This document shows positions 24,891-44,194 of a stretch of DNA of 64,000 bases, piece after piece. Source of the DNA: a phage; the sequence record PX880103.1. One strand, 5' to 3'. Under the pieces are notes generated by a model, which made no database searches, had not been told where the DNA came from, and saw only the letters and a list, made by a program, of their open reading frames with translations. Each line of letters starts with the position of its first letter. The first letter of the stretch is position 1. The translations under genes were made by a program, and so were the position numbers.

Positions 24891-25541
24891 TTATTTTTCC
24901 TTTCTTATGAAGTTTTCTATCATATGTCTATAGCAGATATTAGGATAACCTGCCTTGACAGCTATTTTATTAAATTTTGTGCGCTTAGGTCTATTATTAT
25001 AAACCCATAATTCATAAAGCGCATCATAACTATTCCATATTTCTCCTCGCCTAGGATTTGGTAAACCATATCGAGGTGAATTTTTACCGCTAAATCTTCC
25101 TTTTCGGGCTTTACTCATATTAGCCTTGGCTTCATCGGATATAATTTTACCTTTATGAGCTAGACGCATTTTGGCTTTAGTTTCTTCTGGGGTCTTTTTG
25201 CCTTTAATCCATGACGGCTTGCCATATCTAGGATTATTTTCACCCGAGAAAAGAACAGAGTTTTGGATTTTAAGGGTTTCTATTAATCTACTTGTTAATT
25301 TAACACCTTTATTATATCGCATTAAATTTACAGCATAATGCAATCCTCTCACATCTGGATATATTTTAGTTAATAATCTATGAGCTATAAAATGCTCACG
25401 CGCAGTTAACTCAACAAGATTGTTTTTGTCATCTGCTCCTCCTATACATCTAGGAATTATATGATGGCGTTCTTTATATCCGCCAAGATGCCGGCATTTA
25501 GCTTTTGTAATTAAAGCCGAGTAAATTTTTTGGTAATTCAC
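24891..25541 (-). CDS. Free-standing HNH homing endonuclease with NUMOD-like repeats
   Basis: GTG start with AAAGGA SD; HNH core GGYKERHHIIPRCIGGADDKNNLVELTAREHFIAH; repeated GxNxPxYGK / K(A/G)K motifs; C-terminus paralogous to 41877..42731. Confidence 0.75.
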   Translation of the reverse strand: MNYQKIYSALITKAKCRHLGGYKERHHIIPRCIGGADDKNNLVELTAREHFIAHRLLTKIYPDVRGLHYAVNLMRYNKGVKLTSRLIETLKIQNSVLFSGENNPRYGKPSWIKGKKTPEETKAKMRLAHKGKIISDEAKANMSKARKGRFSGKNSPRYGLPNPRRGEIWNSYDALYELWVYNNRPKRTKFNKIAVKAGYPNICYRHMIENFIRKEK

Positions 25542-40178: not shown

Positions 40179-41861
40179 TTAAACCATTACAGTAAATCGA
40201 CCAACTTTCTTCATTTGAAGATGCTGACCGTATGCTTGCGGGTCATGGTCTCTATGCGAAATAACAAAAACGTTAGTATTTTTTAAACTATCTAAAATAG
40301 TTGAAATAGCTTTTACACCTTCAACGTCGGTCGCTGAATCAAAAACTTCGTCAAGAATTAGCGTGTTTATTTTAACACCTGAAACTTTTTCAGCAATATC
40401 ACGCCAAGTAAATAAAAGAGCAATATCAATTCGTGCTTTTTCACCTTGACTGAATGAAGCATAACTAAAATCTTCACGACCACGGGATTTAATTGTCTCA
40501 TTAAATTCTTCATCTAATGTAAACACATAATCCGCTTCCATTATTTTAAGATAATGGTTAATCTGCTTATTAAATAATGGAATGTACTTTTTAATAATAG
40601 CACCTTTAATACCAGAATCTTTGAGCATATCAGTCAAAATTCCTCGGTGGTATTTTTCCATTACTAAATTAGTTTTTGTCTTAACAATTTTATCAAGTTC
40701 TTCTTGAAGCAGTGCTATTTCATCAGCATGGTCAATAAACTCAGAAGATGCTTTTTCTATAGCCGCTTTAACTTTTTTAGCTTTATCTACCGTCGTGATT
40801 AGAGATTGCTTTTTATTGCGAATATCATTTGCCAACGACTGTTGGGTTTTAATATTATCTCGGTATTCATCAACAAGAACTTTTAAATTATCACGGTGTG
40901 TTGAAAGCTGTTCAAACGAATACGTACATTCAGAAACTTTATCTTTAATTTTGGAAACAACTTTATCACCGGAACTCAATTGCGACAAACAGGTTGGACA
41001 TAATCCACCTTCGTGATACATATTAATGACTTTATTATACGAGTCAATTTTTGATTTAATTAAAACTGCTTCTTGACCGATTTTATTAAATGCATCAGTC
41101 GGGTCTTCATCTAAAACAATATTAACTAATCTTTCATTAGCTTCTTCTATTTCCGATTTTAGCGTTCTAGCTTCTTTTGCCAAATCATCATACATATTTT
41201 GCAGACGAGTAAGGTTGTCACCAGTTAATTTTTTCTGGCGTTCAACATTATCATTATATATTTTAATTTGTTGGATAATACTATCTTTTTTAACATCAAG
41301 CACTTGGTTCTGTGAATTTAATTCACGTATTAGTGCTTTGTTAAGCTTATCCATTTCAGCTAATGTTCCTACCTCAAGCAGGTCTTCCACAAGCTTTCTT
41401 CGCACAGGGGTCGACAAACCCATGAAAGGGGTATACCCTGCTGTACCAAGGACAACAATCTGCTTGAAACTGGCATATGACATTCCGATAAGCTGTTCAA
41501 ATTCTGCTTGGAAATCTTTACTGCTGGCAGATTCATTAAGACGTGTACCGTTAACGGTGATTTCGAAAACGTTTGGTTTTTGTCCTCTTTTGATATAGTA
41601 CTTTTTCTCATCATATTCCATCCACAGTTCAACTAAAAGTTCTTTCTTATTTGTGCTGTTTATTAATTGACCTTTCTTTACATCACGAAATGGCTTGCCA
41701 AAAAGCCCAAATGTGATGGCTTCTAACATAGTAGACTTACCACCGCCATTTCGTCCAGTAATAAGAGTTTTTTGAACCTTATCTAATTGAATGTCAACTC
41801 CATTTTGACCAACTGACATTATATTTTTATATTTTACTCTATTAAGTTTAAATGATTTCAT
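40179..41861 (-). CDS. 46: Recombination nuclease subunit gp46 (SbcC/Rad50-like)
   Basis: 560 aa as in T4 gp46; Walker A GRNGGGKST, coiled-coil middle, CPTC zinc hook; ATG confirmed. Confidence 0.9.
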   Translation of the reverse strand: MKSFKLNRVKYKNIMSVGQNGVDIQLDKVQKTLITGRNGGGKSTMLEAITFGLFGKPFRDVKKGQLINSTNKKELLVELWMEYDEKKYYIKRGQKPNVFEITVNGTRLNESASSKDFQAEFEQLIGMSYASFKQIVVLGTAGYTPFMGLSTPVRRKLVEDLLEVGTLAEMDKLNKALIRELNSQNQVLDVKKDSIIQQIKIYNDNVERQKKLTGDNLTRLQNMYDDLAKEARTLKSEIEEANERLVNIVLDEDPTDAFNKIGQEAVLIKSKIDSYNKVINMYHEGGLCPTCLSQLSSGDKVVSKIKDKVSECTYSFEQLSTHRDNLKVLVDEYRDNIKTQQSLANDIRNKKQSLITTVDKAKKVKAAIEKASSEFIDHADEIALLQEELDKIVKTKTNLVMEKYHRGILTDMLKDSGIKGAIIKKYIPLFNKQINHYLKIMEADYVFTLDEEFNETIKSRGREDFSYASFSQGEKARIDIALLFTWRDIAEKVSGVKINTLILDEVFDSATDVEGVKAISTILDSLKNTNVFVISHRDHDPQAYGQHLQMKKVGRFTVMV

Positions 41862-41876
41862 TTTGTATCCAATTGT

Positions 41877-42731
41877 TCACAATGAAGAAAATTCTTTAAC
41901 TAAAGCCTGTAATGAAGCCTCTATTGGATATCCATTCTTAACTAACATTTTTCTAAACATCACATGTTTAGGACGATTATATGATATCCACAATTCATAC
42001 AATTTATCTTTATTATCCCAATGATAGCCTTTTCGTCGAGACGCTATATGAGCTTTTCTAATCTCCGGATTTTTCCAACTAGCAGCTACTGAATTTGATA
42101 TAGCTATTTTATATTCAGGTTTTGATAAAGCAGCACGAACAGCCTTTTGGTGTTTAATTTTATTTTCTTCGTTATTAAACCATTCCCTTGAAGCCATTGA
42201 AATTTTTTGTTTTGTTTTAAAATTATTTAATCTTTCTTTGTTATCTTTCCTATTTTTTGCTACTGAAAAATATTTTAATGCCCTTTCTCTAGCAGCATTT
42301 CTATTTTGTGGATTTGAATAATACTGTTGAAGCCTTTTTGATATTGTGTCACTTACATCCTGTCTTATAAAACTATATTCAGCAGCTATTAAATCAACTT
42401 CGGCTAAAGATAAATTTTTATATGTTTTTCCTGACATCATTCTATTTAAAGCATTTAGCATTTTTCCATTTTTACCTTTTGCTAATAAGAAATGTGCTTT
42501 GAAATGATTAAAATGACTTAAATTAACTAAATTCCATGTAGATTTTAAATATTCAGGAAATATTGATTTAGGAAGCACGTGGTGTGCTTCCGTTTTACCT
42601 GGAGTTTTAACAGTTGAATTCATAGAAATAAAATTAATGTAAGACTTGGCGTCTTCTTCACTCAACGCTAATTTTTCAACTAATTCCTTTATTAAAAATT
42701 CATCATTAATATCAAGTTTAAAATTCTTCAC
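41877..42731 (-). CDS. Free-standing HNH homing endonuclease (second copy)
   Basis: 284 aa, GTG start with AAAGGA SD; HHVLPKS...HFNHFKAH core; C-terminus KDKLYELWISYNRPKHVMFRKMLVKNGYP parallels the 24891..25541 protein. Confidence 0.7.
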   Translation of the reverse strand: MKNFKLDINDEFLIKELVEKLALSEEDAKSYINFISMNSTVKTPGKTEAHHVLPKSIFPEYLKSTWNLVNLSHFNHFKAHFLLAKGKNGKMLNALNRMMSGKTYKNLSLAEVDLIAAEYSFIRQDVSDTISKRLQQYYSNPQNRNAARERALKYFSVAKNRKDNKERLNNFKTKQKISMASREWFNNEENKIKHQKAVRAALSKPEYKIAISNSVAASWKNPEIRKAHIASRRKGYHWDNKDKLYELWISYNRPKHVMFRKMLVKNGYPIEASLQALVKEFSSL

Positions 42732-42943
42732 AAAAGATTCCTTTTAATGTATCTTTTAGACCATTCTATCATATCATCATAATCTAAAAAGTATTCATCA
42801 AATTCAGCCATGCAAACAACGCCTTGTGCTGTTTTTGATGTAATATAAATTATTCCAACATATCTAGAATCTTCTTCGGTATAATCAATGTTTGCTATGA
42901 ATTCATCATTAATGTCAAATGTCGAAAACTTCACAGTATGCAT
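42728..42943 (-). CDS. Hypothetical protein (about 71 aa, 46.1 position)
   Basis: ATG at 42943 chosen to reduce overlap with the upstream ORF (track start at 42991); start uncertain. Confidence 0.4.
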   Translation of the reverse strand: MHTVKFSTFDINDEFIANIDYTEEDSRYVGIIYITSKTAQGVVCMAEFDEYFLDYDDMIEWSKRYIKRNLL

Positions 42944-43178: not shown

Positions 43179-44194
43179 TGTGTTGCCTCTACATATAACT
43201 GATTTGCATATTGAATAAGTGCTTCACGGTCAGAATCAGTGATGTCTGGAATTGCATTAATGTATTCTTCCATCAATGTCTGAAGCGATTGAACTTCAAC
43301 TTCTTCACTGTCATCTGACTCGACAGAGTTATCAATCTTTGACACAACTCGTAATGAATGCACAACTTTCTCTAGTTCAGATTCGAACTTCGTCAGATTT
43401 TTGTCTACTTCAGTTACTATAACACGTACTGATAGATTTGTAAAATCTTTATAGTCAATTTTTCCTTTAAATGGATAATGAATTCTACGATGCCAAGTAG
43501 TATTGTTTGGAATAAATTCCATTCGTTCTGTTTCTGTATCAAACATCCAGAACCCGCGGGGGTCATTCTCGTCACCTGCAGTTAGTGTCCATGGTGTCCC
43601 AATATATCTGACGTTAGCAGCCTCAGAGATAGTATGGAAGTGACCAGACCACACTTCTTTGTAAGTCTTAAGGAAATCAGGTTCAAGACCGTGAGATTTC
43701 ATTCCTTTATAAAAATAAAATCCATTCAGTTCCCAGTGACCGACACAATAAGAAGCAGATGAAGTTTTGATATGCTCAAGAATTTCACCAGTATTTTCTT
43801 CGCACATCCAAGGAATCAAATCAATCAAACATCCGTCAAAATCTACTGTAGTAGGCTTATCATATACTTTAACATTAGGATATTTAGCCAAAAGCTCAGT
43901 AGAGGCATTTGGAGTTAAAGTATTTTTAAAGTGCATATCATGGTTTCCTACAACAGTATGTAGGGTAATACCAGCATCATCAAGCATTTGAACTATTTCA
44001 CGGGCGAACTCCATAGTTTTATGCGTGATTGCTTTTCGCACATCAAAAATATCGCCGTATTGAATCCAGGTAGTAATTCCATTTTTCTTAGAATATTCTA
44101 TCGCTTGCTTAATTCCATCCAACTGAATGGATTGAACCCACTCGTCATCGGCTTTAACGCCTAAATGCCAATCACCTAAATTTAAAATTTTCAT
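43175..44194 (-). CDS. 47: Recombination nuclease subunit gp47 (SbcD/Mre11-like)
   Basis: 339 aa as in T4 gp47; phosphoesterase motifs (GDWH, GNHD); ATG confirmed. Confidence 0.9.
   Translation of the reverse strand: MKILNLGDWHLGVKADDEWVQSIQLDGIKQAIEYSKKNGITTWIQYGDIFDVRKAITHKTMEFAREIVQMLDDAGITLHTVVGNHDMHFKNTLTPNASTELLAKYPNVKVYDKPTTVDFDGCLIDLIPWMCEENTGEILEHIKTSSASYCVGHWELNGFYFYKGMKSHGLEPDFLKTYKEVWSGHFHTISEAANVRYIGTPWTLTAGDENDPRGFWMFDTETERMEFIPNNTTWHRRIHYPFKGKIDYKDFTNLSVRVIVTEVDKNLTKFESELEKVVHSLRVVSKIDNSVESDDSEEVEVQSLQTLMEEYINAIPDITDSDREALIQYANQLYVEATQ

Follow-up and report, generated by a model that had tools for sequence, protein, structure and literature searches.

A free-standing gene located immediately upstream of gene 46 in a T-even phage genome very probably encodes a homing endonuclease of the T4 Mob family. 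The window in which it lies, a stretch of 64,000 nucleotides from sequence record PX880103.1, is a segment of a Tequatrovirus (T-even) genome that shows 95–99% identity to T2, T6, ECML-134 and their relatives, and the reading frame occupies its minus strand, a detail that the initial annotation left out. Taken together, the comparative data suggest, at slightly less than even confidence, that one Mob-type lineage has tracked the start of gene 46 through at least three genera of the Tevenvirinae, accompanied by a protective immunity patch in gp46, that it took over the gene 46 start in Tequatrovirus, and that T4 and about 74 other phages carry resistant footprints of it. A generic annotation of the gene is already public, to which the present work adds a specific prediction of its target, the replicated signature of a putative immunity patch, and the finding that the endonuclease captured the start of gene 46. 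Our literature search, the coverage of which was incomplete, found no papers describing an endonuclease at the 46.1/46 junction. The features on which the analysis draws are the following.

24891..25541, minus strand: paralogous Mob-type HNH endonuclease, 216 aa (phrog_655, E 1.3e-59; NUMOD3, E 8e-07; HNH, E 0.0019).
40179..41861, minus strand: gene 46, Rad50/SbcC-like recombination nuclease subunit and predicted target (Pfam AAA_23, SMC_N and Rad50 zinc hook; T4 annotation).
41798..41844, minus strand: polymorphic patch in gene 46, codons 6-22, K12/Q19 carrier-type allele, with 14 substitutions relative to the RB32 type.
41844..41861, minus strand: right repeat copy ATGAAATCATTTAAACTT, the present start of gene 46 (MKSFKL), from the alignment of 11 carriers and 9 non-carriers.
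41862..41876, minus strand: spacer ACAATTGGATACAAA, 15 nt, with a replacement GGA ribosome-binding site for gene 46, read directly and absent in T4.
41877..42731, minus strand: probable Mob-type HNH homing endonuclease gene, free-standing and intact, 284 aa, GTG start (ORF list; phrog_655 match).
41922..42035, minus strand: C-terminal module, residues 233-270, W..LYELW...RPK..F......GYP, 54% identical to the paralogue over 37 aa.
42480..42593, minus strand: HNH core, residues 47-84, composed of a strand (EAHHV), a strand (WNLVNL) and a helix (SHFNHFKAH), from the invariant residues and the AF2 model.
42714..42731, minus strand: left copy of an 18-nt degenerate direct repeat, GTGAAGAATTTTAAACTT, the original gene 46 start (MKNFKL), identical to T4.
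42728..42934, minus strand: gene 46.1 (DUF5487; Pfam DUF5487, E 4.4e-49), with its extent as in the T4 and ECML-134 annotations.

The reading frame proved to be as initially described, since its 284 codons, GTG start, Shine-Dalgarno sequence and end 15 nt before the gene 46 ATG can all be read in the sequence. The GTG at 42731 is preceded by AAAAGGAATCTTTT, which holds an AAGGA Shine-Dalgarno motif with a spacer of 7 nt, and it overlaps the TGA stop of 46.1 as GTGA. At the other end, 41877 is the last position of the stop codon, and gene 46 follows directly downstream with its ATG at 41861. With regard to the identity of the product, the protein matched phrog_655, described in PHROG as 'homing endonuclease' (E 3.5e-45), as well as phrog_12434, and tblastn retrieved T4 mobD (E 6e-12) and VR5 mobE (E 6e-8). 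The gene is labelled 'homing endonuclease' in the RefSeq records of T2, T6, ECML-134, Lutter and others. The motif that had been quoted as evidence of an HNH enzyme (HHVLPKS...HFNHFKAH) was found, and in an alignment with 92 homologues the residues Y31, H50, H51, P54, N67, H76 and H80 are invariant. The assignment to the Mob-type HNH homing endonucleases is thus borne out by the phrog_655 match, the homology to mobD and mobE, and the invariant HH..P..N..H...H pattern.

The AlphaFold (AF2) model of the protein has a pLDDT of 95.1 over its full length and of 93.4 over residues 1-135. Its elements E47-51, E68-72 and H73-84, modelled at pLDDT above 95, bear the conserved His and Asn residues, and the remainder is all helical; the arrangement that defines the HNH superfamily, a His general base, an Asn and His/Asn metal ligands on a strand-strand-helix unit, is found both in the sequence and in the model. 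Pfam returned no HNH match at E ≤ 1 for the 284-aa protein, no NUMOD match and nothing significant, sequence and profile searches of the PDB were negative, the fold searches did not retrieve I-HmuI, and a scan of IMG/VR found no relatives of the endonuclease. A first homologue search gave 6 sequences, and the total of 990 comes from an exhaustive HMMER search of representatives. Among its relatives, Pfam detected NUMOD3 in 12 of 41, HNH in 7 of 41 and an I-HmuI_NUMOD-like domain in 5 of 41; one relative, P0023, exceeds the gathering score for Pfam HNH (23.4 bits vs 21.4), and the match of the paralogue to HNH Pfam (PF01844 and relatives, E 0.0019) is under the cut-off. The middle region of the 284-aa protein, residues ~135-232 (42035-42330), contains four degenerate W/Y-x-N-P-E/Q helical repeats (YYSNPQNR.., WFNNEENK.., LSKPEYK.. 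and WKNPEIRK..), which AF2 renders as a series of short helices. Pfam NUMOD3 misses these repeats, yet it detects the middle region of the paralogue.

The paralogue ends with its stop codon 1 nt before the ATG of gene 56 (dCTPase) and hence has the same layout, directly upstream of an essential gene. Compared with the gene 46-linked copy it is the rarer of the two, with full coverage of the locus in only 30 of 791 related records. The initial annotation had proposed that the two endonucleases share a C-terminal DNA-binding module and differ in their catalytic or recognition N-termini. Alignment confirmed the C-terminal likeness, with 54% identity over the last 37 aa and a Smith-Waterman score of 114, against 23.7 ± 4.9 for shuffled sequences and with none of 2,000 shuffles reaching 114. 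The proposed difference between the N-termini did not hold, as both proteins have the HNH domain, 37% identical over 57 aa (E 1e-6), and it is the helical middle that differs. The idea that only the C-terminal module is common to the two proteins thus seems very improbable: the C-terminus is the best-conserved segment, at 54% against 37% for the HNH core, and the module is joined to another N-terminus in a metagenomic protein, but the N-terminal HNH domains are homologous, their invariant residues are identical and the match to phrog_655 runs from end to end in both proteins. BLASTP aligns the two across nearly their full length (E 9e-13), and the paralogy extends along the whole protein, beyond the C-terminus.

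The final ~40 aa, as far as sequence comparison goes, fit a portable module, which presumably binds DNA. It is confined to a subset of the family, and other members end with a different module. In the metagenomic protein, P0069 (269 aa), the module is present twice in tandem behind an N-terminus without the HH..N..H motif. P0069 was assigned to phrog_314, 'homing endonuclease' (E 1.7e-12), and Pfam returned nothing for it; a GIY-YIG reading of its N-terminus was dropped because it lacked Pfam support, and only membership of phrog_314 is claimed.

The position of the gene in the genome is that of a precise insertion. Comparison of the interval among relatives agreed with the earlier view of the gene as an insert, since T4 lacks it and the insert, 870 bp relative to T4, falls exactly between 46.1 and 46. 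In T4, the stop codon of 46.1 overlaps the GTG start of gene 46, a start that GenBank M10160 records for this gene. The endonuclease opens with the codons GTG AAG AAT TTT AAA CTT, and these six and the ribosome-binding site that precedes them are this T4 gene 46 start, so that the endonuclease uses the ribosome-binding site, the GTG and the six codons that serve gene 46 in insert-less phages. Gene 46 of this phage begins instead with ATG AAA TCA TTT AAA CTT, and RB69 gene 46 likewise begins with ATG AAA TCA TTT AAA. The right copy of the repeat matches the left one at 14 of 18 nt, including an exact stretch of 9 nt (TTTAAACTT), and because the spacer and the right-copy start are part of the insert, the latter is flanked by an 18-nt degenerate direct repeat. 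Thus, the ribosome-binding site and ATG that gene 46 now uses come from the 3' end of the insert, and the translation start that was taken over was one coupled to 46.1. The locus is an example in which a selfish gene has captured an essential gene's translation start and given it a substitute.

With regard to expression, no late promoter (TATAAATA) was found near the endonuclease gene, and the sigma-70-like matches were not above chance (13 vs 13.4 expected from shuffles), which is consistent with a promoter-less cassette that would be expressed by upstream transcription, as mobE, mobA, mobC and mobD are. An internal intrinsic terminator of the mobE kind was not found on the sense strand of the gene. 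A GC-rich 8-bp hairpin, GGAAGCAC-ACCAC-GTGCTTCC (42571-42591, -13.6 kcal/mol), lies exactly on the codons for the catalytic EAHHVLP; it was rejected as a common regulatory feature because it has no T-run on the sense strand and is not kept in Melville, F2 or the paralogue. The MotA-box-like string TGCTTTA occurs inside the gene on the minus strand at 42132 and at 42453, and the former is followed by TATAAA 12 nt on. The string at 42132 could act as a weak middle promoter for gene 46, with an imperfect -10; neither string is claimed as a promoter, given that the -10 elements or the spacing are imperfect.

The endonuclease gene is sporadic among close relatives. It is present in about 71 (71-72) of ~520 Tequatrovirus records and the 46.1/46 junction is uninterrupted in 446 of 519 related records, and such presence/absence polymorphism among close relatives, in a free-standing reading frame between conserved genes, is one of the marks of a Mob gene. 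Frameshifts, at differing positions, are found in 3 of the 11 aligned carriers, all T2 records included, and these are independent.

42122-42123: T2 frameshift, -2 nt.
42208: RB51 frameshift, -1 nt.
42464: G2133 frameshift, +7 nt.

Among the eight intact copies, the variable codons comprise 15 synonymous and 5 non-synonymous ones, which, with 165 sites counted as synonymous and 687 as non-synonymous, gives a crude dN/dS of ~0.08. A mobile endonuclease gene that is functional in some genomes and decaying in others would be expected to show such a pattern.

The nearest homologues, with 44% amino acid identity, are also found directly upstream of gene 46, in other genera. In Salmonella phage Melville (Gelderlandvirus), the endonuclease lies between genes 47 and 46, and in the Escherichia phages F2 and PNJ-9 (Mosigvirus-like), which count as one lineage, it lies between 46.2 and 46 and replaces 46.1 altogether, as is seen when F2 (L005 2200-3304) is set against RB69 (L023 1312-1795). 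Given that the left flank varies between genera, the 5' end of gene 46 is the only element that the insertions have in common. The Melville and F2/PNJ-9 endonucleases overlap the gene 46 start by 14 nt, and MKNFKL is absent from their N-termini, which indicates that only the Tequatrovirus insertion captured the six codons. Melville and STML-198 have neither 46.1 nor 46.2, and the Melville endonuclease comes directly after gene 47. Lutter has an additional 'HNH endonuclease' reading frame directly upstream of gene 47, overlapping its start (L018 4273-4896), so that in this phage endonuclease genes precede the genes of both subunits of the gp46/47 nuclease.

The carriers also differ from the non-carriers at the beginning of gene 46 itself. 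In an alignment of 11 carriers and 9 non-carriers, the flanks show a background of 0-2 substitutions per 60 nt between the two groups, with the exception of the first ~70 nt of gene 46, and there 14 positions distinguish all 11 carriers from the RB32-type non-carriers (Sf21, RB32, HY03, KK4, EcNP1 and KNP5). Counted per 30 nt along gene 46, the differences between the window and RB32 are 11, 4, 4, 0 and 0, and similar counts were obtained in the other genera, with 8, 15, 1, 1, 0, 0 and so on for Melville and STML-198, and 2, 9, 3, 3, 0, 0 and so on for F2 and RB69. At the protein level, non-carriers of the three genera have Y-Q-N-I-M-S-V-G-G-(N/S)-P, and carriers of the same three have Y-(K/S)-N-I-M-S-V-G-Q-(N/V)-(G/P/F), a parallel replacement of Q12 by K or S and of G19 by Q. 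Every one of the 71 carrier records has the K12/Q19 patch, at 97.8% identity or more over 181 nt, and the patch is also found in 74 records without the endonuclease, including T4, fPS-65, PE37 and RB55; the RB32-type patch is found in ~370 records, none of which is a carrier.

In analogy to MobE, we read the patch as an immunity allele that may mark the target site, and the carrier-type patch is predicted to overlie the target of the endonuclease. It could also be a co-conversion tract that travels with the gene and is not a determinant of immunity. The replication of the patch concerns three lineages only, with F2 and PNJ-9 taken as one. Moreover, the patches of Melville and the window are ~90% identical and the endonucleases only 44%, a disparity that calls for strong constraint or for convergence.

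Two further variable blocks were noted in the neighbourhood. At the 3' end of gene 46 (40251-40431) there is a second hypervariable block, in which the window and T2 have one allele (0-2 differences per 60 nt), from which T4, T6, RB32, HY03 and KNP5 differ by 9-23 per 60 nt, and T4 and RB32 differ from each other by 9-16 per 60 nt. This block abuts the 46/45.2 spacer, which in RB32, RB51, YenP8 and F2 holds a mobB-like homing endonuclease on the opposite strand (RB32ORF054w). The 5' part of gene 47 (43954-44134) is mosaic, with one allele in the window, T6 and RB32 and another in T4, T2 and HY03, at 8-14 differences per 60 nt and with no link to carriage of the endonuclease.

Such T-even mosaicism is among the grounds for supposing that the gene has stopped homing and is a remnant, decaying or domesticated, in which case the patch and the sporadic distribution would reflect ordinary mosaic recombination. 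Unrelated allele blocks do occur nearby, where gene 47 begins and where gene 46 ends, and 3 of 11 sampled copies are frameshifted, with all T2 records among them. The change in the intact copies is, however, mainly synonymous (15 vs 5), the site is shared by orthologues in three genera, and the patch exactly adjoins the insert and is associated with it in all 71 carriers, so that we regard a remnant of this kind as improbable.

A stronger alternative concerns the place of the cut and centres on the T4 junction, which corresponds to the carrier sequence minus the insert between the two TTTAAACTT copies. T4 retains the left-copy start (GTG AAG AAT) followed by the carrier-type patch to codon 21 (L003 1920-1985), and this junction is either the footprint of a lost element, and thus a resistant allele, or an ancestral target. 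By the same token, the carrier-type allele of the 74 endonuclease-less phages could equally be an uncut target. If the enzyme recognised the uninterrupted T4-type junction (..GTGAAGAATTTTAAACTT followed directly by AATAGAGTAAAATAT..), the insert would protect its host by splitting the site, T4-type phages would be sensitive recipients and the RB32-type patch would be a resistant or an unrelated allele. The carrier flanks are identical to T4 on both sides of the insert, exactly this junction is present in 74 endonuclease-less records, and the right repeat differs at 4 of 18 positions and has a wholly different upstream context, which would break a site that spanned the junction. On the other hand, the left flank is 46.1, 47 or 46.2 depending on the genus and the position of the endonuclease is constant, the allele of non-carriers in the other two genera is Q12/G19 and not the T4 type, and a dense, partly non-synonymous patch would be superfluous if insertion sufficed, yet it recurs in three genera. 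We consider recognition of the junction unlikely, albeit the most serious competitor to a site within gene 46. The internal site is favoured because an insert that splits its own site needs no patch and because the patch alters amino acids in a highly conserved segment, and a patch that changes amino acids is what an enzyme tolerating wobble changes would lead one to expect.

[quoted passage not shown] The homing model that we consider probable, by analogy with known systems, consists of attack on the 5' end of gene 46, repair by copying and immunity through the patch. In a mixed infection, the enzyme would bind the 5' end of gene 46 of endonuclease-less relatives with the Q12/G19 allele, at the sequence TAT CAA AAY ATH ATG TCR GTR GGY GGN that encodes YQNIMSVGG, and would nick or cut it through its HNH site, with H51 as the general base along with N67, H76 and H80, much as MobE acts in the 5' end of nrdB. 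Recombinational repair off the carrier genome would then copy the endonuclease gene across along with codons 1 to ~22 of gene 46, and the carrier itself would be protected by the substitutions in codons 6-22, Q12 to K/S and G19 to Q among them. The gene might later decay by frameshift, as in T2, RB51 and G2133; a deletion between the TTTAAACTT repeats could also remove it and leave only the resistant patch, as in T4.

Should this reading be true, most T4-like phages, namely those of the RB32 type, would be susceptible, and T4 and the ~74 phages with the footprint of a lost element would be naturally immune. The predicted target window measures ~50 bp, and a natural test set is at hand, with intact copies in T6, ECML-134 and this phage, frameshift nulls in T2, RB51 and G2133, RB32-type alleles predicted to be susceptible and T4 predicted to be resistant without the gene, all of them phages long established in the laboratory. 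The gp46/47 nuclease processes the DNA breaks on which homing depends, and the predicted target would thus encode part of the very nuclease that handles the breaks homing needs.

Among known systems, the closest parallel is MobE, whose gene is located upstream of nrdB, between nrdA and nrdB, and whose HNH-dependent nick falls at nt 122-126 of T2 nrdB (PMC2790892). Genomes that carry mobE differ at nt 114-131 of nrdB, beside a conserved block to which the C-terminal domain is believed to bind (PMC2790892). The 46-linked endonuclease is of one family with MobE, in which an N-terminal HH..N..H domain is combined with a variable C-terminus, and resembles it in its position directly upstream of an essential gene, in perhaps being a promoter-less cassette that would rely on upstream expression, and in the short polymorphic block that separates carriers from non-carriers in the 5' end of the downstream gene, which is where MobE nicks. 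In contrast, the similarity between the two is only ~28% (measured with the VR5 mobE homologue), the locus is 46.1/46 and the presumed target gene 46, the sense-strand internal intrinsic terminator was not found in the 46-linked gene, and the latter took over the start codon and first six codons of the downstream gene.

The nearest paralogue encoded by T4 is MobD, with 30.5% identity over 83% of the query (E 6e-12), and some annotators have named the gene 46-linked copies 'mobD' or 'MobD-like'; since MobD is found at a different locus (nrdC.11/mobD.1), it is a paralogue and not an orthologue. In a review of T4 mobile elements, MobD is uncharacterised, functional data among the five T4 mob genes are limited to MobE and, by personal communication only, MobA, and the Mob enzymes are described as nicking, with the route to recombination called an open question (PMC2988022).

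A further likeness is to I-HmuI and I-BasI, the intron-encoded nicking enzymes of Bacillus phages, in which an N-terminal HNH domain is followed by an extended helical region that tracks the DNA, an organisation expected here as well. Unlike these, the 46-linked gene is free-standing and not in an intron, and the I-HmuI-like NUMOD architecture is not detected by Pfam in the 284-aa protein, NUMOD3 being found in the paralogue and in 12 of 41 relatives. Lastly, SegF and SegG of T4, beside genes 56 and 32, are likewise products of free-standing endonuclease genes that adjoin essential genes of DNA metabolism. They cut the neighbouring T2 gene, causing marker exclusion with co-conversion. They differ from the 46-linked enzyme in their GIY-YIG catalytic fold and in making double-strand cuts hundreds of bp off the insertion site.
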